A stretch of 64,000 nucleotides of DNA, from contig CAVXLD010000001.1 in the NCBI GenBank assembly GCA_963762565.1, positions 198,286-262,285 of the forward strand. Reading direction: 5' to 3'. The notes under the pieces were generated by a model. The model worked only from the letters and a program-made list of their open reading frames with translations, had not been told where the DNA came from and did no database searches. Below, piece by piece: positions 4,331-47,425 of this stretch. Each line of letters begins with the position of its first letter. Position 1 is the stretch's first letter. The position numbers were made by a program, and so were the translations under genes. Origin of the DNA: an uncultured Verrucomicrobiae bacterium (GTDB lineage: Bacteria > Verrucomicrobiota > Verrucomicrobiia > Chthoniobacterales > JAFAMB01).

Positions 4331-4532
4331 CGGAGCTGGGAGGCGTAAGTGGACGTAGTGGACGAAGTAGACGTAGTGGACAAAGTGGACCGGGAGTGGA
4401 CGATTTAACTCCTCGCCGCCGAATCTGAGGACGTCCACTCCGTCAACTCAGTCCATTCCGTCCACTCCTGTCTACTCGGCCGCCCATGCCCGGCGCACCC
4501 CTACTAGCTCCTAGATTCCAGCTCCTAGCTCC
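4331..4532. repeat. Nested palindrome of 9-nt arrays in the aroC / lysR divergent region
   Basis: Six GTAGTGGAC-type units (4345-4401) are mirrored by five GTCCACTCC-type units (4433-4477). An outer ggagctgggagg (4332-4343) is mirrored by ctagctcctagattccagctcctagctcc (4504-4532). Confidence 0.85.
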
Positions 4533-8589: not shown

Positions 8590-9651
8590 ATGATTTGGAC
8601 ACCGTTTAACTTCCGAACGACGCTGCTCTACTCAGCGGTCTGGCTCCTCCTGACAGGTACAATGGCGAAGGCAGAACCTCCGAAATTGATATTGCCAACG
8701 GAGAACGACGGCCTTTTGACCGGTAAATTCGCGGAGTTCTATCAATACGTTCAGCGCGATTTCGAGGGCCAAGTCGGCCAGCCGTGGGAGGGCGGCCAGT
8801 ATGGTTTCGTCCGGAACCCAAGACGCATTGGATCGCAGGTCATTTATACGCGATTTCACGAGGGGATCGATATCCGGCCTCTACACCGGGATGCTGCCGG
8901 CGAGCCGGAAGACATCATCCATGCAATCGCCGCCGGAACCGTAGTTTACACAAATCCTGTCGCCAGAAATTCGAACTACGGCCGGTATGTGGTCATCGAA
9001 CATCACCTGGACGGTTTCCCTTATTACAGCCTTTACGCCCATCTGAACACGATCACTGTGAATATTGGCGACTCGGTAGATCAGGGTTCACCGATTGCAG
9101 TGATGGGCCATACCGGCGAGGGGCTCGACAGGGAGCGCGCCCATGTTCATCTGGAGCTAAACCTTCTTTTGAACTCCCATTTTTCAGAATGGTTCCAGGG
9201 ACATCACTCAGCAGACATCGACCGGCACGGTATCTACAATGGGATTAACTTGGCCGGCATCGACATTGGCCGGTTTTATTTGGAGCTCCAAAAGAATCCG
9301 GAGCTTACGGTGCCTACCTTCGTTCAACAGGGAGAACCCTGGTACAGAGTCCTGGTCCCGATATCGCCCCGAATGGATCTGACCGAACGATATCCTTGGC
9401 TGTTAGAAGGCGAAACGGACGCGCCCAGCTGCGAGATCAGTTTCGACCGCACTGGGCTGCCGCTTAAGGTTCGCGGTTCTAGCGAACATGTGACACAGCC
9501 AACGGTATCCTGGGTCCATTCTTCGCCTTTCCCTCAGCATCTGTTGACCAAAGGTTTCATTCGGGACCACGGATCAGGCTACGTTCTCTCAGAGGAGGGA
9601 AACCGGTACATCAGCCTGGTTTGTGACTCGCCTCAGGCTCGCCATCAATAG
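8590..9651 (+). CDS. M23 family metallopeptidase
   Basis: HEGIDIRP, YSLYAHLN, GHTGEG and HVHLELN motifs. N-terminal signal peptide. Confidence 0.85.
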   Translation: MIWTPFNFRTTLLYSAVWLLLTGTMAKAEPPKLILPTENDGLLTGKFAEFYQYVQRDFEGQVGQPWEGGQYGFVRNPRRIGSQVIYTRFHEGIDIRPLHRDAAGEPEDIIHAIAAGTVVYTNPVARNSNYGRYVVIEHHLDGFPYYSLYAHLNTITVNIGDSVDQGSPIAVMGHTGEGLDRERAHVHLELNLLLNSHFSEWFQGHHSADIDRHGIYNGINLAGIDIGRFYLELQKNPELTVPTFVQQGEPWYRVLVPISPRMDLTERYPWLLEGETDAPSCEISFDRTGLPLKVRGSSEHVTQPTVSWVHSSPFPQHLLTKGFIRDHGSGYVLSEEGNRYISLVCDSPQARHQ

Positions 9652-9776
9652 CAGATAGCACTGGAGGGGAGCCGCCTGTTTTCACGTTTTTCGATCGCAG
9701 CTCGGGATCGGCGAAAATGTTGCGCGGTCGCGACGCACGCACCAAAGCGGCTCCCCTCCAGGCTATTGGCTATTTG
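9647..9776. repeat. Family B element, short form (B1) with AATAGCM arrays
   Basis: ggaggggagccgc (9663-9675) pairs with caaagcggctcccctcc (9743-9759). Flanks aatagcagatagca / ggctattggctatttg. Lacks the inner repeat pair. Confidence 0.8.
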
Positions 9777-9841
9777 AGAGCGAGCCTCAGACGAACTCCC
9801 GCCTTGCCCTGCCCTTGAATCCCTTCTAAGAATCTCGGCGC

Positions 9842-13530: not shown

Positions 13531-14381
13531 CCCTGGCGGCTCTGCTGACGTTCTTAGTGCAAGGCGCGAGATCCCAGGATTTGTCTTTGGCCGCCCAAAG
13601 CGCAGCCGTGGTTGATTCTTACTCCGGCGAATTTCTTTACACGAAAAACGCCGATGCCAAAGAATACCCGGCGAGCTCCACCAAGATTTTGACGGCGCTG
13701 ATCGTGATCGAGGCTGGCAATCTTGACCAAGTGGTAACGGTGGCTCCGGAAGATACCAAGGTCGAACCTAGCAGCCTCGATCTGAAACCGGGACAACAAT
13801 TTACGCGGCGCCAACTACTCTTCGGCATGCTGCTCAAGAGCGCCAATGACGTTGCCATGTGCTTAGCCAGAGATAATGCCGGTTCCGTCCCTGCGTTCGC
13901 CGAAAAGATGAATTTGCGGGCAGCCGAACTAGGAGCAACCTCCAGTCATTTTGTTAATCCACACGGCCTCCATGATCCCAATCACTATACGACGGCTCAT
14001 GATCTGGTCCTCATCGCGCGCGCAGCGATGCAACAGCCGCTGTTCCGTCAGATTGTTTCAACTATCTACTACACTTGGCGAACTCCCAACGGCGAAGTGG
14101 ACCAGCTACGCAACCATAACCGGTTACTCCGGCATTTCGCAGGCTGTAACGGGCTGAAAACCGGTTATACCCGGGCCGCACAGCAGGTTCTGGTGAGCTC
14201 CGCTTTGCGGGGTGGTCACGAGGTGGTCGCGGTTGTGCTTCATACCGACAAACCCGGCATCTGGGTCGATAGCAAGACCCTCTTGACCTACGGACTTATT
14301 AAGGTGGGGTGTCCAGCGGAGGATATTGTGGACACCACTGACCGGGTCGACGAGCCGGGCGATGCGGACGAAGGGAAGTGA
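13497..14381 (+). CDS. D-alanyl-D-alanine carboxypeptidase (S11, PBP5/6-like)
   Basis: Signal peptide. SSTK (SxxK), SAND (SxN) and KTG motifs. Confidence 0.85.
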   Translation: MDDGRWKTGSLALAALLTFLVQGARSQDLSLAAQSAAVVDSYSGEFLYTKNADAKEYPASSTKILTALIVIEAGNLDQVVTVAPEDTKVEPSSLDLKPGQQFTRRQLLFGMLLKSANDVAMCLARDNAGSVPAFAEKMNLRAAELGATSSHFVNPHGLHDPNHYTTAHDLVLIARAAMQQPLFRQIVSTIYYTWRTPNGEVDQLRNHNRLLRHFAGCNGLKTGYTRAAQQVLVSSALRGGHEVVAVVLHTDKPGIWVDSKTLLTYGLIKVGCPAEDIVDTTDRVDEPGDADEGK

Positions 14382-14420
14382 CTTTGGCGTTTGGCGTGTC
14401 GGCGGACGGGACCGCAATTT

Positions 14421-14701
14421 GGTGGGGCGAGGCTCCCGAACGGAAGATGTACTTTCACAGCGCCCCTCGCTGAACCTCATGAGTTGTCGGCAACACCGAT
14501 GGACCGCCGAGCCGTCGGTCTGCAGCGTTTCAATACCCCGTTAGAATGAAGAACGTGCGTAGCAGATGCTTCAGATGCGCTGATTAGTTGTACGCGCTGG
14601 GACGCGGCTCGGCACGCCAATCGGCGAAACCTCGCGCGCAGTTTCGCAAAATCGAGCCTCTTTGTCGGAGATTTTAGGTCACTCGGGAGCCTCGCCCCAC
14701 C
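14421..14701. repeat. Family A element, copy A1 (281 nt)
   Basis: TIRs ggtggggcgaggctcccgaa (14421-14440) / tcgggagcctcgccccacc (14683-14701). Internal gccgagccg (14506-14514) / cggctcggc (14605-14613). GGCGTTT units on the left flank (14384-14405). Confidence 0.9.
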
Positions 14702-14847
14702 AACGTTGGGCCGCTACACGCGGATGCTCACAGATTCTTCCTCCGCATCCCATGCCGTAACCGACTCAAAATCAAGCAATTGCGTCTATTACGGCGACCC
14801 CCTTGCAGTTTCTGTGCCACTCTCCTACTATTCACTCACGACAACTT

Positions 14848-17034: not shown

Positions 17035-17270
17035 GGTGGGGCGAGGCTCCGGAACTACGATTTTGTGTTCACAGGGGAGTTGATGCACTTAACCCAGCGC
17101 TCACAATTTCGATACGCTGCCGAGCCGCTGTTCTGTCGTGTGGCCGGCACCTTATTCCATGGGAGATCAGGGGAATCGGCTCGGCGGTCCTTCCGGCCTA
17201 ACGTTGCGTCCGGCGTCAAATCATCGAGGTCTCCGATATAGCGTCCGGTCTTTCGGGAGCCTCGCCCCAC
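17035..17270. repeat. Family A element, copy A2 (236 nt)
   Basis: TIRs 17035-17054 / 17252-17270. Internal 9-mers 17119-17127 / 17177-17185. Followed by cgtttcgcccattcg units. Confidence 0.9.
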
Positions 17271-19077: not shown

Positions 19078-19722
19078 ATGCCGATCATAAATTACGCGAG
19101 CAAAGAAATTCAGTTCAAGATCGTCTATTACGGGCCGGCCCTGAGCGGCAAAACGACTACCATTGCCTATATCCATTCGAGGTTGCCGGCTGCGTTTCGA
19201 GGAGATTTGGTGTCGTTGGCCACCGCGGCAGACCGCACCCTCTTTTTCGATTTCTTGCCGGTTGAGGCAGTGATCTTGCAAGGCTTCAAAACCAAATTCC
19301 AGCTCTACACCGTTCCGGGGCAGGTGGTGTACAATACAACCCGGCAGTTAGTCTTACGCAGCGTTGACGGCATCGTATTTGTGGCCGATTCGCACTGGGA
19401 CAAGATCCACGAAGATGTGGAGAGTTTCCGAAATCTCGAGGAAAACCTTCGCAAACAGCATCTCTCATTGGACGAGATCCCGTATGTTCTGCAGTACAAC
19501 AAACGTGACTTGCCCGATGCGGCTCCGGTGTCGTACTTAGAATTTTTGCTGAATAACCGGCGCCGACGCGCCCGAAGTTACGAAGCGATCGCAACGAAAG
19601 GACGGAGCGTCTTCGCTGCATTAGATGCCGTGACCCAAAGCGTTCTTAACCGGTTCATTCAAGAGAATCACCTTCTCAGGCCGATGCCGGCCAGAGAGAG
19701 CGCTGGGGCGGGGAGAGTGTGA
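19078..19722 (+). CDS. mglA: MglA-type Ras-like small GTPase
   Basis: KIVYYGPALSGKTTT P-loop, DRTLFFDFLP, LYTVPGQV switch II and YNKRDLP match my recollection of Myxococcus MglA along the whole length. Confidence 0.9.
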   Translation: MPIINYASKEIQFKIVYYGPALSGKTTTIAYIHSRLPAAFRGDLVSLATAADRTLFFDFLPVEAVILQGFKTKFQLYTVPGQVVYNTTRQLVLRSVDGIVFVADSHWDKIHEDVESFRNLEENLRKQHLSLDEIPYVLQYNKRDLPDAAPVSYLEFLLNNRRRRARSYEAIATKGRSVFAALDAVTQSVLNRFIQENHLLRPMPARESAGAGRV

Positions 19723-19947
19723 ATGGTGATTGGTGATTGGTGGGGCGAGGCTCCCGAAAGGCCTTTTAGTCTTATCAAGCGGGTCAGTTCTCACCCGGAG
19801 ATTATGTCCGCTACGCCGATAAACCCGCCGAGCCGTTGGTCCACGCGAACCATGGCTCGGCAGCGTTTCGGCATAGGTCGTATCGTGGTGAGGATCTTCC
19901 CCCTGCCTTGCGATCGTCATCAGGCCTTTCCGGAGCCTCGCCCTACC
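19718..19947. repeat. Family A element, copy A3 with GTGATTG array on the left
   Basis: The array gtgtgaatggtgattggtgattgg contains the mglA stop. TIRs 19739-19758 / 19928-19947. Minimal central hairpin gccgagccgttggt-ccacgcga-accatggctcggc. Confidence 0.9.
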
Positions 19948-19994
19948 AATTACCCGCAGTTGCGCTTCTTGCCACCCTCATATATGTGTCCGAA

Positions 19995-20660: not shown

Positions 20661-21061
20661 AGCTCGAAAGAGCAGTCCGGCTCAATCCCTACCTTCTGTT
20701 TATCGTTCCTCTGGTAGAAGTCGTTTGTCTGCTGCTGCTATTGTTTGTGGTTAGCTCCACATTCTTAGTACACCCTGGCATCAGCGTAAACCTGCCATTC
20801 TCAAAATTCACCTTAGGTACCGTCGGAAACTCGGTGATCGTCACGGTAACCGCGGGCCCCTTCCCCCGGATCTATTATCGAGATCAAGCCGTAACCTTAG
20901 ACGAGTTACGGACAGCATTCGAAAAAGACCCGGTAACTGATAAGTCAGTCATAATAAGGGCGGATCGGGAGGCGCCTCAAGGCTCTGTGGTTCAAGTTAT
21001 GAATCTCTGTCTGGATCGGGGATACTCGGTGATTCTGGCAACGTCACCCAAATCGCCGTGA
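20657..21061 (+). CDS. ExbD/TolR family biopolymer transport protein
   Basis: 134 aa with a single N-terminal TM plus periplasmic domain. ATGA overlap with the upstream gene. Confidence 0.8.
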   Translation: MKLERAVRLNPYLLFIVPLVEVVCLLLLLFVVSSTFLVHPGISVNLPFSKFTLGTVGNSVIVTVTAGPFPRIYYRDQAVTLDELRTAFEKDPVTDKSVIIRADREAPQGSVVQVMNLCLDRGYSVILATSPKSP

Positions 21062-21783
21062 AGCCAGCGGCGCGCTCCCTGCAAAATTCCATTTTCGATT
21101 GGGATCGCCCGAGATGGAACGGACGGTTGCTGTGGCTAATTGTGTTTTCTTTAGGCCTACACTTCGCGGGACTTTACGTTTTCCATGTTGTTTACCCGTC
21201 AACCACTTCTCTGCCTCCCCCAGCGGCTCAAGTCTCGGTACTGAATCCACAAAACCCACAGGACCGCCGGCTCCTTGATTGGGTGGACCTAAACGATCCG
21301 TCTGCGATTAGCGCCCCCAAAGTAGACGACAGCCTGGTCGCAAAATTAGTCCCGGGTTATCGTCCGACGTTTAGCGACGAGACCCCTGAAATCCGGAAAA
21401 GCCAGGCCGGCGCCCCAGCCCAGGAGGCGGCTACTCCTTCGCTTTTTACTCCCGACAATCTTTTCCCTAGGCAAGTCAGGCCTGCTTCTGTTCAACGGAA
21501 GACCAGTTTCGCAAGCCACCTTGAGTTCGGGCCCGCCTTGGAAAATAGAAAACCGGCCACACCGGAGAGACTCCCGACCAGCCAGCGGCTCTCAGAACCC
21601 ACGACTTTCTTTGTGGGAATCAATAAGAAAGGCGAAGTAAAATACCTTTTTCTATTGCGAACTTCGGGAAATGATCAGCTGGATCATCTTGCCGAAGAGG
21701 CTGTTAAGCAGCTGAGATTTCAGCCCGATAACACCGAGAGCTGGGACACGGTTTCGCTGCAGTGGGGCAGCGGCGGGAAGTGA
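21058..21783 (+). CDS. TonB-like / hypothetical anchored protein
   Basis: GTGA overlap with exbD. N-terminal TM, Pro-rich linker, and a C-terminal ~70 aa (VKYLFLLRTSGNDQLDHLAEEAVKQLRFQP) compatible with a TonB C-terminal fold. Weak assignment. Confidence 0.45.
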   Translation: MKPAARSLQNSIFDWDRPRWNGRLLWLIVFSLGLHFAGLYVFHVVYPSTTSLPPPAAQVSVLNPQNPQDRRLLDWVDLNDPSAISAPKVDDSLVAKLVPGYRPTFSDETPEIRKSQAGAPAQEAATPSLFTPDNLFPRQVRPASVQRKTSFASHLEFGPALENRKPATPERLPTSQRLSEPTTFFVGINKKGEVKYLFLLRTSGNDQLDHLAEEAVKQLRFQPDNTESWDTVSLQWGSGGK

Positions 21784-21990
21784 TTAGTGATTAGTGATTA
21801 GTGATTGGTGATTGGTGGGGCGCTGGGGCGATGAAAAAACGTGTAACATGGACGCGGACTGGCACTAATACACTTATAAGTCCCGTCTTGTCATAAGCCC
21901 CATCGATATCAGCCGCGCACATCCTTGCTCTAAACGCTTTTCCATCAGCCCAGGCACCCACTAATCACCAATCACTAATCACCAATCACC
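21781..21990. repeat. TGATTAG/TGATTGG array-bracketed element (A-related variant)
   Basis: The left 5 heptamers begin with the TGA stop of the tonB-like gene and are followed by tggggcgctggggcg. Right cccactaatcaccaatcactaatcaccaatcacc. The core lacks the canonical A TIR. Confidence 0.8.
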
Positions 21991-22055
21991 TTCCCTGCCC
22001 TATTGACGCACCCGCCCCTCCGCGGGACGATGTTGGTAGCGGCCACAAACTGTCC

Positions 22056-22295
22056 ATGATTCGTATCGAACTCCCAACCCTGATCTTCATCTATCTTTTT
22101 CTTTCTGTGATTGTGATCGGCGGCCTCTGGTTGTTCGATGGTTGGCGGGTCCAAAAACGTAAAAAACAAGCCTTGCGTTACGCGGTCCGGTGCACGATTT
22201 GTGCCTCTATTTTCGAAGATAAGACCAATGAGCTGCTACCTCGTTGCCCACGATGCGGCAGCTTAAATGAGAGAAGAAACTTTGGAGGACTTTGA
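22056..22295 (+). CDS. Small membrane protein with C-terminal zinc ribbon
   Basis: 79 aa. One TM (LIFIYLFLSVIVIGGLWLF) and CxxC...CxxC (CTIC...CPRC). Confidence 0.45.
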   Translation: MIRIELPTLIFIYLFLSVIVIGGLWLFDGWRVQKRKKQALRYAVRCTICASIFEDKTNELLPRCPRCGSLNERRNFGGL

Positions 22296-23532: not shown

Positions 23533-24780
23533 GTGATGAGCGATAGACGTGTTGTAGTCACCGGGTTGGGTGTTATCACACCAATCGGTAATGACCTTAA
23601 AACCTTTTGGGAGAACCTTGTAGCGGGGAAAAACGGGATCCGTAAGATCTCGCATTTCGACGCCTCCATCTTCGACTGTCACATTGCCGGCGAGGTGCCA
23701 GATTTCGATCCCATTACGTATCTGGCTAATCCTAAGGACGTTCGGCGGACCGACCGTTTTTCCCAATTTGCTCTGGCCTGCTCAAAGCGGGCCCTAGAAG
23801 ACAGTGGTCTCGATCTGGAACGCATCGACCGCACTCGGGTCGGCGTCCTGGTCGGCAGTGGGATCGGCGGCTTGAGCACACTGGAGACCCAACATGTGGT
23901 TTTCTTGAAGAAAGGCCCTTCCAGAGTGTCTCCCTTCATGGTGCCAATGATGATCGTGAACATGGCCAGCGGATTAATCGCGATGGAATACGGCTTTGAA
24001 GGCCCGAATTATTCTATCGTGACCGCTTGTGCCACCTCCGCGAACTCCATTGGCGAAGCTTGGAGGATGATTCGCGATGATGAAGCCGAGATTTTCTTGG
24101 CCGGCGGTACCGAGGCGGTCATCAATAATCTTGGCCTCGGCGGCTTCTGTGCGATGCGGGCGATGAGCACGAGAAACGATGAACCGCACCGGGCATCGCG
24201 CCCATTCGATAGGGAACGAGACGGGTTCGTGATGGGTGAAGGCGGTGGAGTCTTAATTCTCGAGGAGTACGAACACGCAAAGGCTCGAGGGGCACGCATC
24301 TACTGCGAACTCGCTGGTTATGGACTTACCTGCGATGCTTACCACATGACCGCGCCCAAACCCGATGGGACGCCGGTAGCGCGAGGGATGCAAATCGCCG
24401 CGAAGCGGGCCGGCGTTAATCCGACGGATATTGATTACATCAACGCTCACGCCACATCGACACAGGTCGGCGATGTTTGCGAAACGAATGCGATTAAACG
24501 GTTCGCCGGTGATTACGCGAAAAATGGTCTTTTGATTAGCTCAACCAAATCGATGATTGGTCATCTGCTCGGCGGCGCTGGAGCAGTAGAAAGCGCGGTC
24601 TGCATCCTTGCCATGCAACATGGTGTGGTGCCGCCCACGATCAATCTCGACAATCCTGACCCTGAGTGCGACCTCGACTACGTCCCAAATGTCGCACGCG
24701 AGAAAAAAGTACGAGTCGCACTTAATAATTCGTTTGGCTTCGGCGGCCACAACGCATCGCTTTGTTTCAAAGCATTGTAG
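23533..24780 (+). CDS. fabF: 3-oxoacyl-ACP synthase II
   Basis: RRVVVTGLGVITPIG, ACATS active-site Cys, HATST and GHLLGGAG motifs. Confidence 0.95.
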   Translation: MMSDRRVVVTGLGVITPIGNDLKTFWENLVAGKNGIRKISHFDASIFDCHIAGEVPDFDPITYLANPKDVRRTDRFSQFALACSKRALEDSGLDLERIDRTRVGVLVGSGIGGLSTLETQHVVFLKKGPSRVSPFMVPMMIVNMASGLIAMEYGFEGPNYSIVTACATSANSIGEAWRMIRDDEAEIFLAGGTEAVINNLGLGGFCAMRAMSTRNDEPHRASRPFDRERDGFVMGEGGGVLILEEYEHAKARGARIYCELAGYGLTCDAYHMTAPKPDGTPVARGMQIAAKRAGVNPTDIDYINAHATSTQVGDVCETNAIKRFAGDYAKNGLLISSTKSMIGHLLGGAGAVESAVCILAMQHGVVPPTINLDNPDPECDLDYVPNVAREKKVRVALNNSFGFGGHNASLCFKAL

Positions 24781-24939
24781 GGGGCGTTTGGCGTTCGGCG
24801 TTCGGCGTTTGGCGTTCGGCGTTCGGCGTTCCTATGATTCGAAATGATTGCAACACTGCGGATCTGTCGTGGCTCGTGAGCAAGCGACGCGCGTTATTGA
24901 AGCGCCGAACGCCAAACGGTGAACGCCGAACGCCAAACG
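24781..24939. repeat. Array-bracketed element G1 (GGCGTTY arrays)
   Basis: Seven GGCGTTY units (24781-24830) start 1 nt after the fabF stop. A 71-nt core follows. The inverted array gcgccgaacgccaaacggtgaacgccgaacgccaaacg is at 24902-24939. Confidence 0.85.
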
Positions 24940-25800
24940 AGTAAGTACGTCGTTCTTCTGCTCCTGACCGCATTGTTTTGGTCGTTGGGAGGAGTCCTCA
25001 TCAAGTCCATCGATTGGAATCCTGTCGCCATTGCGGGTTCGCGAAGCTTGATCGCCGTCTTCCTAATCGCCATCCTGCGACCGTCCGCCGTCCGTAAATT
25101 TTCCTGGACCGCATTCTTCGGCGGAATCGCCTACATGGTGACAGTTGTGTTGTTCGTGATTGCAACCAAGCTGACAACCGCTGCCAATGCCATTTTTCTC
25201 CAGTACACGGCTCCGATTTATATCGCTCTGATAAGCCCATGGCTTTTGAAGGAACGTGTTCGTCGACTGGACTGGATTCTGATCGGTCTTGCTTTCGGCG
25301 GAATTGCTCTCTTTTTCTGCGACCGGCTCTCCTTTGCCGGAATTTGGGGAGTAATGGCCGCACTTGTCAGCGGCTTCTCCTACGCGTGGCTTACGATGCT
25401 GTTGCGTCGCCAAAAATCGGCATCCCCCGAAGCCACGGTGTTCATAGGCAACTTGATGACTGTGTTAGTGGCGGCTCCGGCGATGTGGCCGCCGGTGAAC
25501 CTGGGCCATAATTGGCCTTGGCTGCTTGCCTTGGGCGTCCTCCAGCTCACGATTCCCTATTTGCTTTATACACAGGCTATCCGGCATGTGCGTGCGCTGG
25601 ATGCATCTATAATCAGCATGATCGAGCCGATCCTTAATCCGATCTGGGTCATGTTTGCCGTGGGCGAACATCCCGCCAGATGGGCAATCGTCGGAGGATG
25701 CATGGTCCTGGGAACCTCTTTGCTACGGAGTATCTTCGCCTCGCGCGAGCCCGAATCCGAATTCGCCTTAGGCTCATCCGGAATGACAAATGACAGATGA
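24919..25800 (+). CDS. DMT (EamA) family transporter
   Basis: About 10 TM helices in two EamA-like halves. The start is uncertain because the first codons lie in the GGCGTTY-type array. The stop and last ~13 codons lie in element F1. Confidence 0.75.
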   Translation: MNAERQTSKYVVLLLLTALFWSLGGVLIKSIDWNPVAIAGSRSLIAVFLIAILRPSAVRKFSWTAFFGGIAYMVTVVLFVIATKLTTAANAIFLQYTAPIYIALISPWLLKERVRRLDWILIGLAFGGIALFFCDRLSFAGIWGVMAALVSGFSYAWLTMLLRRQKSASPEATVFIGNLMTVLVAAPAMWPPVNLGHNWPWLLALGVLQLTIPYLLYTQAIRHVRALDASIISMIEPILNPIWVMFAVGEHPARWAIVGGCMVLGTSLLRSIFASREPESEFALGSSGMTNDR

Positions 25801-25902
25801 AAAATGACAGATTGGGAAATCCTTCGGTCACACGCGTTCTATTTCGGACATTTGTCATCTGTCATTTGTCATTTGTCATTCGAAACGAGCCTCAGGCGAG
25901 TT
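25760..25902. repeat. Family F element, copy F1 (143 nt)
   Basis: aattcgccttaggctcatccggaATGACAAATGACAGATGAAAAATGACAG, core attgggaaatccttcggtcacacgcgttctatttcggac, then the inverted TGTCATY array and cgaaacgagcctcaggcgagtt. Confidence 0.9.
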
Positions 25903-26329: not shown

Positions 26330-26343
26330 GATGTGACCTCCGG

Positions 26344-26486
26344 ACTCGCCTTAGGCTCGTCCGCAATGACAAATGACAAATAACAGATGACAGATTGGGA
26401 ATTCCTTCGGTCACACGCATTTCTATTTCGGAGATTTGTCATTTGTAATTTGTCATCTGCCATTCCGAACGAGCCTCAGGCGAGTT
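26344..26486. repeat. Family F element, copy F2 (143 nt)
   Basis: Same layout as F1. Core attgggaattccttcggtcacacgcatttctatttcggag. The right end ccgaacgagcctcaggcgagtt supplies the stop of the ABC ATPase gene. Confidence 0.9.
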
Positions 26487-27231
26487 CGGCTTCTGTGAGC
26501 GCTGCTAACACCCGTTCCTTCCAAGCCGTGAAGGCATGATCCTGTCGAGAACGAGGCCGAGGAAGATCGATCCGAAATTGGCGATGAATTTGTCCGGGGC
26601 GTCCCTTGATCACAACGATGCTGTCGGATAATGCGACCGCTTCTTCAATATCGTGCGTCACGAAAAACATGGTCAACGAATGCCTCGCAAAAAGCTCCAT
26701 CAAATGGTCTTGCAGCCGGCTTCGGGTGAGAGCATCGAGGGCGCTAAACGGCTCGTCCAGCAATAGAAGAGATGGTTTTCGCACTAAGGCTCTGGCTATC
26801 GCCACCCTTTGAGCCATCCCTCCCGACAATTGGCGCGGGTAATAATGGGAGAAGGATTCTAAACCAACTTGCTCCAGAATTTCCTTCGCCAACGCTCCGA
26901 TCCGGCTATGCCCGGCCGGGCCGAACCCGAATTCCACATTTTGGCGAACGGTCAGCCACGGCATGAGTCGGGGCTCTTGAAACACGACGCCTAGGTTGGG
27001 GCGTTCGGCATTTGGCGTTTGGCGTTCGGCGTTCGGCGCACGATCGCTATCCCAGCGGATTTCTCCGGAGGTCGGGCGCTCAAGTCCAGCTAGAATCCGC
27101 AACAGCGTGCTTTTGCCCGAGCCGGTCGTACCCACCATCACCGTGACTTGTTGCGGCTCGATCGAAAGCTCAAGATTAGCAATCACCAAAGCGTCACCGT
27201 AAGCCTTCGTTATCTGATCGATTCTTACCAT
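26476..27231 (-). CDS. ABC transporter ATP-binding protein, NitT/TauT (SsuB/TauB-like) family
   Basis: Walker A GTTGSGKST, signature LSGGMAQR, Walker B LLLLDEP. The true start is probably MVRIDQI at 27231, since the track start at 27330 reads through element F3. It contains an in-frame heptamer-array insertion. Confidence 0.9.
   Translation of the reverse strand: MVRIDQITKAYGDALVIANLELSIEPQQVTVMVGTTGSGKSTLLRILAGLERPTSGEIRWDSDRAPNAERQTPNAERPNLGVVFQEPRLMPWLTVRQNVEFGFGPAGHSRIGALAKEILEQVGLESFSHYYPRQLSGGMAQRVAIARALVRKPSLLLLDEPFSALDALTRSRLQDHLMELFARHSLTMFFVTHDIEEAVALSDSIVVIKGRPGQIHRQFRIDLPRPRSRQDHAFTAWKERVLAALTEAELA
26994..27042. repeat. GGCGTTY heptamer array inside the ABC ATPase coding sequence
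   Basis: ggttggggcgttcggcatttggcgtttggcgttcggcgttcggcgcacg. Translated on the minus strand it gives APNAERQTPNAERPN, between the Walker A region and the VVFQEPRLMPW Q-loop. Confidence 0.85.
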
Positions 27232-27243
27232 TGAACTCGCTGA

Positions 27244-27377
27244 GGCTCCTTCAAGATGACAATGACAGATGACAGATGACAAATGTCCGAAATAGACCGC
27301 GCGTGACCGAAGGATCTCCCAATCTGTCATCTGTCATTTGTCATTCCGAACGAGCCTCAGGCGAGTTCGGCTGATAG
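27244..27377. repeat. Family F element, copy F3 (core inverted relative to F1/F2)
   Basis: aactcgctgaggctccttcaagATGACAATGACAGATGACAGATGACAA, core atgtccgaaatagaccgcgcgtgaccgaaggatctcccaatc, then TGTCATCTGTCATTTGTCATtccgaacgagcctcaggcgagtt. Confidence 0.9.
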
Positions 27378-28230: not shown

Positions 28231-28524
28231 TTGTGTCCTGTCCCATAAGTAACATGGCTTTCGCCGTCGGCCAGTTGGCTGTTTTTCAAGGCGCGAGCGA
28301 AGCGCCCATATCTGGTTCATACGGGTCGAGCGAGCAACGCGGAAAAACAGCCAACTGGCCACGGCCCGGAGGGTTGCGATGAAAATGGGCCGGCGGCTGC
28401 GTTGCTCGTCGGTTACGTATCGATCAAGATATGCGCCCTCTACCGCCAGTCCGGCTCGGACCGCCTTGCCGGCGGCCCATTTTGATCGCAACGAAAGCCA
28501 TGTTACTTATGGGACAGGACACTA
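28231..28524. mobile_element. Family D MITE-like element, copy D1 (294 nt)
   Basis: About 33-nt TIRs: tgtgtcctgtcccataagtaacatggctttcg / cgaaagccatgttacttatgggacaggacacta. It fills the gap between the SBP stop (28522-28524) and the permease start (28216). About 96% identical to D2. Confidence 0.9.
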
Positions 28525-30018: not shown

Positions 30019-31053
30019 ATGATGAACTATCGTTTACTCGGTCGGAGCGGGCTGCGAGTTTCGGAGCTCTGCTTAGGAACCATGACCTTCGGGGAAGATT
30101 GGGGTTGGGGAGCTCCCAAGGATGAAGCACGGAAAATCTACGACGCGTTTCGCGAAGCCGGCGGCAATTTTATCGATACGGCTAACGTTTATACGCAGGG
30201 TTCGAGCGAAACCTTTCTCGGCGAGTTCTTTTCGGAACACCGTGATAGCGTGGTTCTCGCCACGAAATACACCAATGCGCTAACCACCAATGACCCGAAT
30301 GCCGGGGGAAACCAGCGCAAGAATATGATGCAAGCCGTTGAAGGCAGTTTGCGTCGCCTGAAAACCGATTACATCGACCTCTATTGGCTTCATATCTGGG
30401 ATCAAATGACGCCAGTTGAAGAAGTGATGCGCGCCTTCGATGACCTGGTTCGCCAAGGTAAAGTCCTTTATGTCGGCGTTTCCGATGCACCTGCCTGGTG
30501 GATCAGTAAAGCGAATACGATCGCTGAGCTCCGTGGATGGTCGCCCTTCGTCGGTCTGCAGATTGAGTATTCACTGATCGAACGTACGGTCGAACGGGAG
30601 CTGATTCCGGCAGCGAAACATCTTGGGCTCACGGTCACCGCCTGGTCACCTTTAGCGGGTGGCGTTCTCACCGGCAAATATGCGTCAGGCGAAGCCACCG
30701 ACTCCCGTTATTCTACCGAAATGATGAAACAATGGTTACCAGAGCAAACTCGGACTGCTCGCATCGTTGAGGCTCTTCAGAATGTCAGTAAACAGACCGG
30801 ACGGAGTAAAGCCCAGATCGCATTGGCTTGGCTGCGACATCGCGCCGTCCCGGTTATCCCTATTGTGGGCGCCCGCAAACTGACTCAGCTTGAAGACAAC
30901 ATCGCCAGTCTGACACTCACTCTCACTCCGGACCAACTGGCCTTATTGGATGAGGCCAGTCAGATCGAGCTCGGTTTCCCGTACCACTTCTACGCTAACG
31001 AGATGGTCCGCACGTTCGTGTACGGCGGTGTAAGGGACCACATAATCACGTGA
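30019..31053 (+). CDS. Aldo/keto reductase
   Basis: YRLLGRSGLRVSELCLGTMTFG, IDTANVY and LYWLH motifs. Confidence 0.9.
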   Translation: MMNYRLLGRSGLRVSELCLGTMTFGEDWGWGAPKDEARKIYDAFREAGGNFIDTANVYTQGSSETFLGEFFSEHRDSVVLATKYTNALTTNDPNAGGNQRKNMMQAVEGSLRRLKTDYIDLYWLHIWDQMTPVEEVMRAFDDLVRQGKVLYVGVSDAPAWWISKANTIAELRGWSPFVGLQIEYSLIERTVERELIPAAKHLGLTVTAWSPLAGGVLTGKYASGEATDSRYSTEMMKQWLPEQTRTARIVEALQNVSKQTGRSKAQIALAWLRHRAVPVIPIVGARKLTQLEDNIASLTLTLTPDQLALLDEASQIELGFPYHFYANEMVRTFVYGGVRDHIIT

Positions 31054-31345
31054 TTAGTGATTAGTGATTGGCGATGGCGCTGGTCGGGCGAGGCTCCCGA
31101 AAGAACTAAAGTCTCTAACGAAGATCCAGACGTTTCGGCCTGAAAGAGTTTGTTAGGCCGATCGGTGTGCCGAGCCGTGGTTCCGCGCGTAACCCGGCTC
31201 GGCGCGTTGCTAGAAGTAGCATGCCTTCTTAATTCGGAATGCGAAGGGAGATGGAAAATCACAGAGTCTTTCGGGAGCCTCGCCCTACCAACGGCGTCTC
31301 ATCCACCATCACCTCTCACCAATCACCAATCACTTCTCACCTTCT
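31051..31345. repeat. Family A element, copy A5 with inverted TGATTAG-type arrays
   Basis: The array starts on the aldo/keto reductase TGA stop. TIRs 31082-31101 / 31270-31289. Central hairpin gccgagccgtggtt-ccgcgcgt-aacccggctcggc. Right array atcaccaatcaccaatcact (to ~31345). Confidence 0.9.
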
Positions 31346-31348: not shown

Positions 31349-31759
31349 TCACTCCCCGGCCGCGAGATAATCTCCTTCGACGTGCACAATCTCGATCAGA
31401 TTGTTGAACGGATCCCGAGTAAAAAACCGGGGACGAAATGGTAATGCCCTCGTTTCGATGATCTGGTAACCAGCTGCCTTGAGTCTTGTCCGATAATCAT
31501 CCAAATCATTGACCTCGATGCAGAAATGCGGGGACCAATCCCCCGGCACTGATCGTGCCTCCGGAACACAATGAAGCTCGACACCTTCTTCTCCGGTATA
31601 AAACCAAATCCAACCTAACGGTTTGACGACTTTAGGAATCGGCTTTTCCCGAAAGCCCATCACCTCGACATAAAATTTCCGCAAAAAGTTCTCCTCTCCT
31701 GGAGGAAAAATAATCGTGACATGCTGGAACTTTGGTGTCGCGGCGGTCGTCGTGCTCAT
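31349..31759 (-). CDS. VOC (glyoxalase/bleomycin-resistance/dioxygenase) family protein
   Basis: 136 aa. HVTIIF...HFCIEV paired beta-alpha-beta-beta-beta pattern. Confidence 0.7.
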   Translation of the reverse strand: MSTTTAATPKFQHVTIIFPPGEENFLRKFYVEVMGFREKPIPKVVKPLGWIWFYTGEEGVELHCVPEARSVPGDWSPHFCIEVNDLDDYRTRLKAAGYQIIETRALPFRPRFFTRDPFNNLIEIVHVEGDYLAAGE

Positions 31760-33564: not shown

Positions 33565-33858
33565 TAGTGTGCTGTCCCATAAATAACATGGCTTTCGCCG
33601 TCGGTCAGTTGGCTGTTTTTCAAGGCGCGAGCGAAGCGCCCATATCTGGTTCATACGGGTCGAGCGAGCAACGCGGAAAAACAGCCAACTGGCCTCGGCC
33701 CGGAGGGTTGCGATGAAAATGGGCCGGCGGCTGCGTTGCTCGTCGGTTACGTATCGATCTAGATATGCGCCCCTTACCGCCAGTCCGGCTCGGACCGCCT
33801 TACCGGCGGCCCATTTTGATCACAACGAAAGCCATGTTATTTATGGGACAGCACACTA
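33565..33858. mobile_element. Family D MITE-like element, copy D2 (294 nt)
   Basis: TIRs tagtgtgctgtcccataaataacatggctttcg / cgaaagccatgttatttatgggacagcacacta. About a dozen substitutions versus D1 and no indels. Confidence 0.9.
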
Positions 33859-34492: not shown

Positions 34493-34600
34493 CCTGAACT
34501 CCCCGACTCCGCAAAGCCTACGTCGCGGCAAGCCTTGAACTCCCCGACTTCGCAGAGCCTACGTCGCGGCAGGCCTTGAACTCCTTGAACTCCTTGAGCT
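34493..34600. repeat. Tandem repeat: 2 x ~40 nt followed by 3 x 9 nt
   Basis: cctgaactccccgactccgcaaagcctacgtcgcggcaag (34493-34532), ccttgaactccccgacttcgcagagcctacgtcgcggcagg (34533-34573), then ccttgaact ccttgaact ccttgagct. Confidence 0.85.
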
Positions 34601-36053: not shown

Positions 36054-36055
36054 AT

Positions 36056-36182
36056 GTGGAGCGCTGCCTCGCTTGCGAGGCCGTGGTGAGCAGGGCAAGA
36101 TGCTGTGTCATACGCCATTTTTTCGATGCTAGGTGACGTCGCCCTGCTTACCAACGGCCTCGCAAGCGAGGCAGCGCTCCAC
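36056..36182. repeat. Family E element, copy E1 (127 nt)
   Basis: About 40-nt TIRs: gtggagcgctgcctcgcttgcgaggccgtggtgagcagggc / gccctgcttaccaacggcctcgcaagcgaggcagcgctccac. Each TIR holds the self-complementary CCTCGCTTGCGAGG. Confidence 0.9.
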
Positions 36183-36266
36183 ACGGCGTTCTGGCGCGTT
36201 TACTTGACGCAGAAACGTTCAGGCAGATACTTACGCCGCTAGTCTCCCTATTTATCCCCCAAAACC

Positions 36267-37532
36267 ATGAAACACGGAACTGTTTCTGTATTACTTCTGT
36301 CTGCCTGTCTCGCTTCGCCTGGCTTTAGCGATACAGTGATTAAAGTCCTGCACATCCAAAAGCTCCCCGCAGTTCGTGCCATCTGGCAAGAAGCAGCGGA
36401 CCAATATCAGAAGGCAAATCCCGGAGTTAAAGTGCAATTCGACTACCTTGAAAATGAAGCGTTCAAGGCAAAGTTACCCACTCTATTGCAATCTAAAGAC
36501 CGGCCCAGTGTCTTTCATAGCTGGGGCGGTGGAGTGATGGACGAACAAGTCGCCTCCGGCGTCTGCAAAGATATTACTCAAGCGGTCGGGAGCGGCGGAT
36601 TTAAAGACACATTTTATTCGGCCGGTGTCCAGAACTTCACCGTAAACGGAAAGATCTACGGCTTACCAAACGATATTGGACCAGTCGTCTTTTGGTACAA
36701 CAAAGACCTCTGCCAGAAAGCCGGCGTTGATCCGACCCAAATTCATTACTGGGATGATTTTATTGCGGCGGTCAAAAAAATCCAGGCGGCCGGAATTACG
36801 CCAATCGCTGCCGGTGGCAAAGACAAATGGCCACTACATTTCTATCCGGCGATTCTGTTAATGCGCATCCTGGGCAAGGAAGGATTGACCGATGTGGCCG
36901 CCGGCAAGGATGGCGGGTTTACTAATCCCGATGCCGTCAAGGCGTTCCAGCTTTATAAGGAACTCGCGGACTTGCAGCCGTTCCAGAAAGGTTTTCAAGC
37001 GGCGACTTATCCTGATTCGGCCGGTACGTTCCATGATGGGAAAACAGCGTTCCATTTGATGGGCATCTGGGACATCACCGAGGGCCGTTCCGATGCCGCG
37101 GACGGTAAAGGGTTACCGGATGAAAAACTCGGCTGGTTCAACTTCCCGGAAGTGAAGGGCGGAAAAGGTCACGCCAACGATATCTTTGCCAGCGTCGACG
37201 GCTGGCTGGTTACCAGCGATGCCCCCAAAGAGACTGTTGATTTTATGAAGGTCTGGCTCGGAAAAGATATTCAGACCAAGCTAGCGGCCGCTGGTCTGTT
37301 CATTCCGATGGTAAAAGGAACGGCCGAGGCCATCCAGAACCCTTTCTTCAAAGGGATCGCCACGGAGGTCGCCGAATCCGACTGGATCGAAATCGCGATG
37401 GACCAGTTGCTCGGACCTGACACCGGGTTGGTCTTCAATGATGAGAGCGCCGCGGTAGCCGCTGGAAGTGCTTCCCCAGCGGACGCTGCCAAAGCGATCG
37501 AAAGCGCTTTGGAACGGAATAAGCAGCAATAA
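36267..37532 (+). CDS. Sugar ABC transporter substrate-binding protein (family 1 SBP)
   Basis: Signal peptide. 421 aa with the family-1 solute-binding pattern. Followed by two sugar-type permeases. Confidence 0.8.
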   Translation: MKHGTVSVLLLSACLASPGFSDTVIKVLHIQKLPAVRAIWQEAADQYQKANPGVKVQFDYLENEAFKAKLPTLLQSKDRPSVFHSWGGGVMDEQVASGVCKDITQAVGSGGFKDTFYSAGVQNFTVNGKIYGLPNDIGPVVFWYNKDLCQKAGVDPTQIHYWDDFIAAVKKIQAAGITPIAAGGKDKWPLHFYPAILLMRILGKEGLTDVAAGKDGGFTNPDAVKAFQLYKELADLQPFQKGFQAATYPDSAGTFHDGKTAFHLMGIWDITEGRSDAADGKGLPDEKLGWFNFPEVKGGKGHANDIFASVDGWLVTSDAPKETVDFMKVWLGKDIQTKLAAAGLFIPMVKGTAEAIQNPFFKGIATEVAESDWIEIAMDQLLGPDTGLVFNDESAAVAAGSASPADAAKAIESALERNKQQ

Positions 37533-37534: not shown

Positions 37535-37681
37535 TGAGCTCTCGGTTCTAGGTTCAAAGTTTTAGGTTTTAAGTTCTAAGTTCAGAGTGCTCGAAGGCAG
37601 AAATGGGCCTCCGAGCCTCTGGCTTGCAACTCCCGAAGTAGGACCTAAACCCTACAACCGGTAACTTTAAACCCTGAACTC
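37535..37681. repeat. Array-bracketed element I (AAGTTYW/AGGTTYW arrays)
   Basis: Left ggttctaggttcaaagttttaggttttaagttctaagttcagag. Right gtaggacctaaaccctacaaccggtaactttaaaccctgaact. It fills the whole SBP-to-Gfo/Idh/MocA gap. Confidence 0.75.
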
Positions 37682-40944: not shown

Positions 40945-41762
40945 AATCCCTCTTCAGTTACTATCGATGGTTGGTCTTGCTTCTGGTAGCGAGTTTTTGC
41001 CTGGTTCCATTGTGGGCAACCGTCGTGGGTGGGTTTAAGTCGACGGGTGACCTCCGTACGAATGCTCTCGGCTTGCCCCGGCAGTGGCTGGTAGACAATT
41101 ATATTTCCATCGTCTCGACTCCGCGGTTTTGGCAGATGCTTTGGAATTCGGCTGTGATCGCCTTTTTCACGGTCGTACTAACATTGATAGTCAGTTCACT
41201 AGCTGCATATACTCTAGCTCATTTGCGCTTCGCTGGGCGCAAATGGATCGCCAACTACCTGACCCTGGGACTGACTTTCCCGTTCGCCACTGCAGTCTTG
41301 CCAGTATTTATTCGGGTTCGCGATCTCGGCCTGCTCGACACCTACTGGGGCGTCATCCTCCCCCAAGTCGCCTTTAACTTAAGCTTTAGCATCGTGTTGC
41401 TGCGCGGTTTCTTCTCAGAGTTACCAAAGGAATTGTTTGAAGCTGCGATCATGGATGGTTGCAGTTATCCACGAATCTTTTTGCGCATTACCCTGCCGCT
41501 CTCTCGCCCGATCCTGGCCACTGTCGGCGTTCTGGCTCTGGTCGGAAGCTGGAACAACTTCCTTTTGCCATTGGTTACCATCAATGACGACTCCGTTTAT
41601 CCATGGCCTTTAGGAATCATGCAGTTTCAAGGTCAATACAGCACCGACTGGGGGAAGGTGCTGGCTTTCGTAACCCTCACCATGCTTCCCGCTATCACGC
41701 TGTATCTGATGGCCCAGAAACAGGTCATTGCCGGCCTTACTTCGGGAGCCGTTAAGGGTTAG
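40941..41762 (+). CDS. Carbohydrate ABC transporter permease
   Basis: MalG-type permease with the loop EAAIMDGCSYPRIFLRITLPLSRP. ATGA overlap with the upstream permease. Confidence 0.85.
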   Translation: MKSLFSYYRWLVLLLVASFCLVPLWATVVGGFKSTGDLRTNALGLPRQWLVDNYISIVSTPRFWQMLWNSAVIAFFTVVLTLIVSSLAAYTLAHLRFAGRKWIANYLTLGLTFPFATAVLPVFIRVRDLGLLDTYWGVILPQVAFNLSFSIVLLRGFFSELPKELFEAAIMDGCSYPRIFLRITLPLSRPILATVGVLALVGSWNNFLLPLVTINDDSVYPWPLGIMQFQGQYSTDWGKVLAFVTLTMLPAITLYLMAQKQVIAGLTSGAVKG

Positions 41763-41897
41763 CGTTTGGCGTTTGGCGTTCGGCGTTGGCAGTTGGTAGC
41801 GCTCGAGCTCAGTAAGCGGTTTTCTTCTACATAGCGCTCATTATTTTGGGACGACCACGGCCGCCTTTCACCTTTCACTTCTCACTGATCACTAACC
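41763..41897. repeat. Hybrid array element G2 (GGCGTTY array left, CCTTTCA/CTNATCA array right)
   Basis: cgtttggcgtttggcgttcggcgttggc starts 1 nt after the permease stop. Right side cctttcacctttcacttctcactgatcactaacc. The two arrays are not complementary. Confidence 0.7.
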
Positions 41898-46607: not shown

Positions 46608-46648
46608 GTAAGAGCGGAACGTAACACAGCATTACAAATAACCAAGCT

Positions 46649-46894
46649 GGTGGGGCGAGGCTCCGGAATAACCTGAAATGGCAAACGGAGAACTCGATTT
46701 AGTCTAAACCGAGATCGCGCTTCGCCAATGGGCGCGCCGAGCCGATCCCAGCGTGTGGCAGCCGACGATCGGTCAGGGGGGGTGGAACATGCTGGGACCG
46801 GCTCGGCGCGTTTAGCGGCATCGCCCACGATAGATTGGCAAACATTGACGTCCTCCGCTCGAGCAAAGCGGCCGTTCGGGAGCCTCGCCCCACC
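46649..46894. repeat. Family A element, copy A6 (246 nt)
   Basis: TIRs 46649-46668 / 46875-46894. Internal 9-mers 46736-46744 / 46799-46807. Confidence 0.9.
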
Positions 46895-46902
46895 AACGCC
46901 TC

Positions 46903-47328: not shown

Positions 47329-47340
47329 TCCATTTAATTT

Positions 47341-47422
47341 CACCACAGAGAGACAGAGGACACAAAAGCCAAAATTCGGTTTCCCTTAGGATGACCTTTG
47401 TGTCCCCTGTCTCTCTGTGGTG
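47341..47422. repeat. 26-bp-stem hairpin downstream of clpX
   Basis: caccacagagagacagaggacacaaa (47341-47366) pairs with tttgtgtcccctgtctctctgtggtg (47397-47422), with one mismatch and a 30-nt loop. Confidence 0.85.
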
Positions 47423-47425
47423 AAA

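Follow-up and report, generated by a model that had tools for sequence, protein, structure and literature searches.

Inverted heptamer arrays at the stop codons of an uncultured Verrucomicrobiae bacterium: placement, polarity and turnover

Repeats known at gene ends and the TonB-like locus

Several kinds of short repeats have been described beside bacterial stop codons. We compare with them the 7-nt tandem arrays that begin at or near gene ends in a 64,000-nt stretch of DNA (the window) from an uncultured Verrucomicrobiae bacterium (assembly GCA_963762565.1, contig CAVXLD010000001.1, positions 198,286 to 262,285), above all the array sharing its first triplet with the stop of a TonB-like gene. 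The GGGAATC heptamers of Xanthomonas and the GGGGAYT heptamers of Nostoc lie within 50 bp of stops and some overlap them (Rehm et al. 2015, PMC4692102). The heptamer TAACTGA of Beggiatoaceae, cyanobacteria and Bacteroidetes contains two stop triplets; arrayed in the forward direction it leaves no frame open, and such arrays overlap upstream stops (MacGregor 2015, PMC4679880). GTAG repetitive extragenic palindromes (REPs), abundant in the verrucomicrobium Opitutus terrae, are found between convergent or co-directional open reading frames (ORFs), and their termini often provide the stop codon TAG (PMC3733652). About half of the E. coli REPs are reported to be located within 15 nt of a stop and to have a translational effect only there (Liang 2015, as reported in PMC12306157). 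Finally, long simple-sequence repeats (SSRs) with units of 5–11 nt, or STRR sequences, are intergenic and slippage-variable, the heptamer being their commonest period (Mrazek 2007, as cited in PMC4692102 and PMC4679880). For the arrays of the window we favour, with moderate confidence, the explanation that they are slippage-prone arms of palindromes that form in place and are bounded by selection on the neighbouring ORF. Their flush contact with stops most likely marks the limit of neutral DNA and not a dedicated stop-codon device.

The window was represented by 61 genes, curated from external gene calls and Pfam matches. Tandem arrays were located with Tandem Repeats Finder (TRF), and palindromes were taken from an inverted-repeat listing with arm coordinates. 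For comparison we used L001 to L013, metagenome contigs and metagenome-assembled genomes 99.6–99.7% identical to the window and found by exact-protein look-ups, as well as three syntenic relatives, L133, L134 and L135, whose TonB-like proteins show 98%, 85% and 74% identity, respectively. A clade sample was built from 120 soil-metagenome contigs, fetched via the terminal repeat of GE, an element resembling miniature inverted-repeat transposable elements (MITEs), together with L134 and L135; it comprises 785 kb, 711 ORFs (only those of at least 100 aa) and 544 TRF arrays. Copy-number searches of hairpin cores covered ~1.7 Mb of sampled DNA. Species-representative genomes were also scanned for (TGATTRG)3, which gave a cross-phylum set of at least 119 loci (L014 to L132).

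The TonB-like locus is organized as follows (strand given where one was assigned):

21058 to 21783, + strand: TonB-like gene (ORF), with the stop TGA at 21781-21783
21779 to 21817, + strand: left arm, in TRF 5.6 copies of AGTGATT with 96% matches, equal to (TGATTAG)3(TGATTGG)2
21818 to 21845: left half of the inner stem (GGTGGGGCGCTGGGGCGATGAAAAAACGTGTA), part of inverted repeat I4
21846 to 21930: loop or core of the hairpin, identical in four strain contigs
21931 to 21958: right half of the inner stem, part of inverted repeat I4
21959 to 21990, + strand: right arm, in TRF 4.6 copies of CACCAAT, equal to CTAATCA/CCAATCA units
22056 to 22295, + strand: conserved 79-aa ORF forming the right bound of the gap, called in L001, L002 and L133, its sequence kept in L134 and L135

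The preliminary description had taken the TGA of the TonB-like gene to be the first triplet of a TGATTAG array, and ORF, TRF and sequence agree on this at 21781-21783. The periodicity itself begins 2 nt inside the last sense codon (TRF start 21779). We regard the stop as positionally native because 241 aa is the commonest length among the homologues, which are named as TonB family, with PF03544 in some, and in which a conserved ...WG[ST] is followed by variable tails of 2–11 residues. The arms of inverted repeat I4 (21787-21845 and 21931-21989) are 59 nt long and 83% complementary around a loop of 85 nt, and the whole element (21775-21995) folds as a single hairpin of −100.8 kcal/mol (z = −10.6 against shuffled sequences). 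No T-run follows on its 3' side, the flank reading CTTCCCTGCCC, and no second copy of 21818-21958 was found in the ~1.7 Mb of sampled DNA. Between the same flanks, L133 carries GTGAGAG/GTGAGAC arms around a shorter core, with the TonB-like frame shifted and the protein ending in SER*; L134 carries different arrays 12 nt past a TAG, and L135 a 75-nt gap without any array. The hairpin does not behave as a MITE, as there was no target duplication, no further copy in ~1.7 Mb and no empty site in the strains. Neither does it resemble an intrinsic terminator, with its stem of ~60 pairs, its 85-nt loop and the lack of a T-run, and Rfam 15 gave no match at gathering score in the 64-kb window. The TonB arrays, together with many others, do qualify as long SSRs (units of 5–11 nt in at least three head-to-tail copies).

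As to the other described systems, the Xanthomonas and Nostoc heptamers resemble the window arrays in lying near stops and in occurring partly as inverted pairs (PMC4692102), and the clade arrays share with them the intergenic position near stops (53/179 stop-side edges within 3 nt) and the rarity between divergent ORFs (1/39 heptamer pairs). However, those units are stop-free, prone to form G-quadruplexes and read as such, whereas the arrays here are mostly stop-bearing, nearly always form inverted pairs and build hairpins of 100–300 nt, often with a MITE in the loop. With TAACTGA they share units that close all frames (36/41 inverted pairs). TAACTGA repeats, however, are direct, stand mostly just upstream of starts and were proposed as regulator-binding sites (PMC4679880), whereas the clade arrays are inverted pairs at 3' ends (62 inverted against 3 direct, the arms being separated by a median of 89 nt) and keep a median distance of 51–76 nt from starts, not the few nucleotides of that position. 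Like REPs, BIMEs and REPINs, the array hairpins are extragenic, lie in convergent or co-directional gaps and come near to or overlap ORF ends. REPs, by contrast, are conserved units of 20–40 bp, present in hundreds of copies and linked to RAYT transposases. For the array hairpins no transposase is known, their arms are generic and their cores unique; in 1.7 Mb the cores of the TonB and FabF hairpins occur once each, and only the 7-nt units recur. In the long-SSR literature, as far as the papers citing it relate, arrays are treated as direct, and inverted-pair architecture and polarity do not figure. We regard as new the inverted-pair architecture with its strict arm polarity, the cross-phylum recurrence of one unit, the flush stop-free arrays at native stops and the turnover between strains.

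Array edges and hairpin starts relative to stops

The preliminary description had proposed that arrays are tied to the stop-codon neighbourhood and had named as decisive a comparison with random placement in intergenic gaps. For this comparison each element was placed uniformly in its own gap. In the window, 15 of 33 stop-side edges of arrays or inverted repeats lay within 3 nt of a stop, against 8.8 expected, with a median distance of 7 nt; on the start side the figures were 3/31 and 55 nt. The expectation is as high as 8.8/33 because several gaps of the window are almost filled by their element. In the clade sample, where arrays are present in 36% of inter-ORF gaps and period 7 is commonest (228/577 TRF rows), distances differed clearly from uniform placement. 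Here 53/179 stop-side edges were found within 3 nt of a stop, with 25.9 expected (P<5e-5), and 42 of the 179 touched or overlapped the stop, with 10.3 expected. The excess persisted when 40–60 nt were reserved upstream of starts (53 against 37–39.5, P about 1e-4), and where a gap left 30 nt or more of free space, 28/134 edges were this close, with 4.8 expected. Arrays whose inward unit contains no stop triplet behaved in the same way: 17/63 of their edges came within 3 nt (7.5 expected), and 9/52 did so in the gaps with 30 nt or more to spare (1.7 expected). About 60% of the stop-side edges nevertheless lie more than 10 nt from the stop, and the stop-flush rule is a tendency, not a law.

A trivial origin of the flush edges has to be considered at this point, namely that ORFs end at the first stop they meet, that an array closing all frames therefore necessarily begins at a stop, and that the gaps are small. 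This logic is valid for arrays overlapping ORF ends, was stated for TAACTGA repeats (PMC4679880), and is helped in the window by the gaps that are nearly filled. The pattern is not merely such an artefact, because stop-free arrays are flush as well, even where at least 30 nt are free, and because the stops stand at conserved orthologue positions. In each fetched relative covering them, MglA (214 aa), the S11 peptidase (294 aa) and FabF (414 aa) are of unchanged length, and the aldo/keto reductase (AKR) has 344 aa in the window and in L133 and 343 aa in L135. With the excess also surviving a reserve of 60 nt upstream of starts, artefact or chance is largely refuted and in our estimation very improbable.

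For each of 615 ORF stops, the best inverted repeat on the downstream side was taken; 205 of these had a score of at least 14, and their starts peaked 0–14 nt past the stop at ~4–5 per nt, against fewer than 0.5 per nt beyond 60 nt. Hairpins at 3' ends are therefore a general feature of the architecture, of which the flush arrays form a special case. Hairpins followed by a T-run were not enriched (33 against 24.6 ± 4.7), and none occurred at array hairpins. The same peak is what would be expected if hairpins act as has been reported for REPs, that is, if ribosomes terminating within ~15 nt of a stable hairpin are stalled by it, so that less of the upstream product is made and proximity itself is selected. 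In the account of Liang 2015 given in PMC12306157, 260 of 496 REPs lie within the 15 nt to which their activity is confined, and a hairpin as stable as that of the TonB-like gene (−100.8 kcal/mol) would suit such a role. On the other hand, the hairpins follow housekeeping genes of every kind, their stems have no sense-strand G.U bias and some 60% of the stop-side edges lie more than 10 nt away, which makes this kind of tuning improbable to us.

Strand polarity, stop content and proposed growth of the arms

The two arms of a pair are not equivalent. Among 41 inverted heptamer pairs, the unit read inward contained a stop triplet in 36, against 23.9 expected from a composition-matched permutation (P=5e-5); the stop was present inward only in 19 pairs, outward only in 2, in both directions in 17 and in neither in 3. 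Counting distinct units, 15/19 had an inward stop, where 9.6 were expected (P=0.0045). The inward unit was richer in G than in C in 23 pairs and richer in C in 3. The stop-bearing units include TGATTAG, ATGACAR, GCAGTAA, CTAGGAG and ATAGCAG, and the earlier claim that they close all frames could be upheld for TGATTAG, with TGA at position 0 and TAG at 4 and 11, and for ATGACAR on one strand. On the reverse strand of the TGATTRG arrays it applies to the CTAATCA units and fails for the CCAATCA units. Divergent gaps, which make up 22% of all gaps, are avoided by heptamer pairs: 1/39 lies in such a gap, and 38/39 have at least one stop flank. Arrays of 9- and 10-mers, in contrast, inhabit divergent or promoter gaps; the 9-mer pairs of the clade lie mostly in start/start gaps, and some of their units contain AAGGAG. 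The elements that had been singled out beforehand as exceptions in divergent promoter regions fit into this division. In the window, arrays of 9 or 10 nt were seen in such gaps at 4347-4477, 53728-53774 and 34574-34597. Units of 8 nt (GGCGAAAN type) almost never contain stop triplets in the clade sample.

One of the units extends well beyond the clade. At least 119 species-representative genomes from many phyla carry (TGATTRG)3 (Bacteroidota, Nostocales, Xanthomonadales, Gemmatimonadota, Planctomycetota and Verrucomicrobiota). Among the matches listed, 34 of 128 arrays terminate a frame that had been open for at least 100 codons in sense, against 7 in antisense, TGATTRG forms the 5' arm in 13/13 inverted pairs, and ORFs enter the arrays in the three frames at 13:11:10. 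This even use of frames fits ORFs that simply meet the first in-frame stop. We had considered that the gene's own stop seeds the unit. This holds at mglA (see below) but was rejected as a general rule, as in only 18/34 ORFs of the matches listed does the stop fall in the opening unit, with even use of the frames, and as in the clade GTGAnnn arrays also lie 20–35 nt from stops.

The polarity could mean that the hairpins are translation-proof, with inward arms selected to stop ribosomes in every frame, arriving from either side, before the hairpin melts, and with the hairpin itself insulating, terminating or stabilizing the transcript. The preliminary description had suggested something similar in proposing that arrays are retained as all-frame stops. 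The enrichment of inward stops among pairs and among distinct units speaks for it, as do the polarity, which is 19:2 among the clade pairs and, among the matches listed, 13:0 for TGATTRG pairs of other phyla, the confinement of heptamer pairs to gaps with at least one stop flank, and the persistence of arrays at the S11 peptidase and mglA despite turnover of their sequence. The lack of enrichment of T-run terminators would leave room for other means of ending transcripts. Against it, 8-mer and GGCGTTY arrays without stops are equally flush. On the sense strand, G.U mismatches in the stems (62) do not outnumber A.C mismatches (67), a comparison in which selection at the RNA level gave no signal and which points to maintenance at the DNA level. 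Furthermore, three elements lie within one ABC operon, where termination would be harmful; read-through and frameshifting are rare, so that selection would be weak; and close strains tolerate the replacement of hairpins and the inversion of loops. Taken together, we find dedicated ribosome-stopping arms an unlikely explanation.

In our preferred explanation of in-place palindromes, these would occupy 3' intergenic space, most of them locus-specific, with GE-like MITEs entering the loops later. Between strains, 7-nt units are added to or lost from the arms, one unit type gives way to another and whole hairpins are replaced; loops would flip through recombination between the arms. Growth would take place by replication slippage and by template switching between arms, which presumably symmetrizes the palindromes in place; template switching is an established mechanism of quasi-palindrome correction. 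Purifying selection on the adjacent ORF would be the sole fixed boundary, and arm ends would therefore come to lie flush with the stop or some codons inside a dispensable C-terminal tail, while on the other side the promoter and the ribosome-binding site would keep the arm away. Since an inward stop in a 7-nt unit closes all frames within 14–21 nt, an arm may touch or overlap the ORF and the protein is not lengthened. Contact being harmless in this case, stop-bearing units would come to dominate the heptamer arms, and the stop would often be the first triplet of the first unit. The enrichment of stops would thus reflect tolerance and not function; a role at the RNA level, as 3' stabilizer or as terminator without U-tract, is possible if speculative.

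Several points weigh against the in-place palindrome explanation. Inward stops are equally common in heptamer pairs more than 30 nt from called ORF ends (ORFs below 100 aa were not called), and, since distant pairs keep their polarity, tolerance at the present site is not the whole reason for it. The sharp peak of hairpin starts 0–14 nt past stops is like that of REPs, to which a translational role is given. At the S11 peptidase, an array kept in 4/4 genomes with different units could indicate selection for its presence. Neutral compaction alone predicts flush GE tips, of which only 3/110 were seen; a general deletional compaction is weakened because the GE tips are not flush. Finally, growth by template switching is something that we infer and that was not directly observed.

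An exploratory search for Shine-Dalgarno motifs found consensus 5-mers inward in 11/41 pairs, with 3.5 expected, and outward in none; likewise, Shine-Dalgarno-like 5- and 6-mers (GGTGA, AGGAG) were enriched inward and never occurred outward. These P-values are optimistic because the idea was formed after the units had been seen. A further reading, to which we assign a low probability, is that inverted heptamer arrays are unrecognized self-extending palindromes found across phyla, whose 5' arms are selected for stops and Shine-Dalgarno-like modules (GGUGA, UAGGAG) that halt or capture ribosomes from either side at the foot of the hairpin. If true, it would account for the polarity of the arms, for the recurrence of TGATTRG from Xanthomonadales to Verrucomicrobiota and for the hairpins hugging stops. 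In whatever way they arise, hairpins rewrite the last codons and stops of ordinary genes between close strains. Should they mark only a neutral limit, their interest is practical, as they inflate or truncate ORF calls and offer a fast-evolving strain-typing marker for soil Verrucomicrobiota. Should the inward polarity be selected, it would provide a testable rationale for the long-noted excess of heptamers in bacteria and a simple, portable 3' module working from both directions.

Strain turnover, mobile elements and other junctions

Besides the TonB-like locus, the following stop/array junctions and repeat elements were considered in the window:

9628 to 9794: palindrome of ATAGCAG units with a GGAGGGGAGCCGC element in the loop, overlapping the end of the M23 peptidase gene (its final 8 codons and its TAG at 9649-9651)
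14383 to 14397, + strand: TTTGGCG twice, 1 nt past the S11 peptidase stop (14379-14381)
19719 to 19954, + strand: stop of the MglA-like gene (19720-19722), array TGAATGG TGATTGG TGATTGG and fused GE-type inverted repeat (19732-19954), from TRF, inverted repeats and sequence
24783 to 24939: GGCGTTY arms (24783-24831 and 24898-24939) around a 66-nt loop, 2 nt past the fabF stop (24778-24780)
25760 to 25902: ATGACAR element, copy 1, enclosing the EamA stop (25798-25800) and the MaoC stop (25892-25894)
26340 to 26489: ATGACAR element, copy 2, between MaoC and ABC ATPase, enclosing the ATPase stop (26476-26478)
27233 to 27368: ATGACAR element, copy 3, with inverted loop; the array's first TGA serves as the permease stop (27341-27343)
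28233 to 28522: 290-bp MITE (ends TAGTGTSCTGTCCCATAA...), copy 1, with TA duplication, in the TAG stop of a gene for an NMT1-type substrate-binding protein (SBP); copy 2 at 33565-33858
31050 to 31342: palindrome filling the convergent gap between the AKR and glyoxalase genes, TGATTRG arms around GE (31081-31290), stops at 31051-31053 (+ strand) and 31349-31351 (− strand)
36055 to 36183: E1, a 129-nt palindrome without arrays, 1 nt past the amine-oxidase stop, its arms multi-copy (18 loci)
37540 to 37588, + strand: TCTAGGT-type array, 7 nt past an SBP stop (37530-37532)
41762 to 41796, + strand: GCGTTTG array overlapping the last base of a permease stop (41760-41762)
47334 to 47429: 96-nt palindrome (inverted repeat) whose right arm encloses the clpX stop (47426-47428)
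63086 to 63424: region at the 3' end of the dynamin-like gene that differs between strains and takes in the final 2 codons with the stop (63090-63092)
~773, 14419-14703, 17036-17270, 19732-19954, 31081-31290, 46648-46895, 53780-, 57052-57188 and 61036-61317: GE copies

Every junction reported earlier was found again, with offsets generally of 0–2 nt. The AKR TGA is the first three bases of the first TGATTAG unit at 31051-31053 (TGATTAG TGATTAG TGATTGG), the mglA TGA at 19720-19722 opens the unit TGAATGG inside its array, and the M23 peptidase TAG at 9649-9651 sits within aaTAGcagaTAGca. For the GGCGTTY arrays, said to begin 1 nt after three stops, this distance is correct at the S11 peptidase; the array is 2 nt away at fabF and overlaps the last base of the stop at the permease. 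E1 starts at 36055, 1 nt past the stop ending at 36053, and the array following the stop at 37532 starts at 37540 in TRF (7 nt). Further stops had escaped notice, namely those of EamA, MaoC, ABC ATPase and permease inside the ATGACAR elements and those of clpX and the dynamin-like gene. GE-type repeat ends at 61036, 46895 and 17036 lie 7–16 nt from stops.

Unit numbers change between strains in steps of one. Gains and losses of 7 nt were seen at 24817, 25860 and 19741 among contigs of 99.6–99.7% identity, and one unit of the FabF array is missing in L001, L003 and L004. At the AKR slot 3 units in the window correspond to 6 in L005, and in L133 TGAGAAG replaces TGATTAG; the relatives concerned are 98–99% identical nearby. 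At mglA, the window reads TGAATGG TGATTGG TGATTGG TGGGGCGAGG, that is, 3 units, whereas L133 reads GCG TGA TTGGTAGGGCGAGG, a native stop directly followed by the GE tip and hence a single unit; the stop position is kept in four genomes and the number of units differs between strains. The mglA unit TGATTGG is thus the native TGA plus the TTGG tip of the adjacent inverted repeat, expanded by slippage. At the S11 peptidase, arrays begin 0–6 nt past the conserved stop in 4/4 genomes, with differing unit types. The dynamin-like slot of L008 and L010 is occupied by an unrelated 100-nt hairpin (L008:14824-14923) between the same flanks. Each hairpin there supplies the last codons and the stop, and the swap begins 2–3 codons before the stop, so that the protein has 573 or 574 aa. 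The FabF loop (24832-24897) is inverted in L133 (L133:13693-13757; 80% identity, opposite strand), and the GGCGTTY arrays at fabF appear to serve as recombination arms of an invertible segment.

Hairpins with the same units at different loci have unrelated loops, and since their cores are single-copy in ~1.7 Mb, the TonB and FabF hairpins were not transposed in; they are locus-specific palindromes. The idea that array hairpins are transposed copies was rejected for the TonB, FabF and L008 hairpins, all three having single-copy cores. Elements that do occur in multiple copies inside palindromes are GE (TTGGTRGGGCGAGGCTCCSGAA), the GGAGGGGAGCCGC family and the E1 family. GE has the terminal repeat TTGGTRGGGCGAGGCTCCSGAA and an inner GCCGAGCCG palindrome, numbers ~9 copies in the 64 kb of the window and has matches in over 120 soil-metagenome contigs of JGI; of the features of a MITE, only its multi-copy nature is confirmed. 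Arrays of varied unit types fill the space between the stop and the GE tip. We also rejected the possibility that arrays are duplicated GE tips, as many unit types lie outside the tips and as, at a place where arrays but no GE are present in the window, L135 carries GE but no arrays.

Bona fide insertion is best seen for the 290-bp MITE, which has inverted repeats, a target duplication, dispersed copies and both filled and empty sites. Its copy 1 is absent from L002 and L133 (empty site CTCTAATTGG) and its copy 2 from L005; empty sites are seen in L002 and L005. IS630/Tc1-type MITEs duplicate a TA target. The TA duplication and the presence/absence polymorphism liken the 290-bp element, and not the heptamer hairpins, to this type. 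The earlier suggestion of stop-targeted insertion, in which mobile elements prefer stops or the DNA just past them, draws its support from here: the 290-bp MITE duplicates TA within CTAA/CTAG with one copy in a TAG stop, copy 2 of the ATGACAR element sits exactly at an ancestral ATGA overlap, and three GE ends have TGA or TAA immediately before the TTGG tip. Yet the TonB and FabF cores are single-copy, same-unit hairpins enclose unrelated loops, GE tips lie mostly 8–30 nt from stops (3/110 flush), no target duplication was seen at array hairpins, gene calls and Pfam revealed no transposase in the window or the fetched flanks, and, among the matches listed, ORFs enter TGATTRG arrays in all three frames equally. 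Insertion at stops is shown for the 290-bp MITE and ATGACAR copy 2 only, and stop targeting is improbable as an explanation of the arrays at large.

The three ATGACAR copies belong to one local palindrome family and are found at three consecutive junctions of an ABC operon. At the site of copy 2, L135 has an ATGA stop/start overlap; the copy split this ancestral overlap, bringing a stop and a GGAGG ribosome-binding site. It adds AELA* (four residues and TGA) to the ATPase and puts GGAGG before the MaoC start. Copy 3 is common to L135, with paired changes in the outer repeat. This outer repeat is read in the same frame at 9628-9651 and 27341-27375 and gives similar ..TRLRL.. tails to the M23 peptidase and the ABC permease, which are otherwise unrelated proteins. 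Within the ATPase coding sequence, a GGCGTTY array (27000-27038) makes the window exactly 21 nt longer than L133 (3 units, PNAERQT), an in-frame expansion of a protein loop.

In some assemblies the starts of ExbB and EamA were called automatically through the repeats (19723-19994 and 24781-24918), giving 313 instead of 221 aa and 320 instead of 293 aa; these calls are inflated because the arms are stop-free. After the radical-SAM gene (57051-57193), L008 (8800-8930) has another hairpin with a GGCGYTGTC array, and L010 (3662-3837) carries a second GE-like element nested in the first. Finally, the DNA upstream of the amine-oxidase gene contains a 41-nt tandem repeat (34495-34584) of 2.2 copies with 93% matches.

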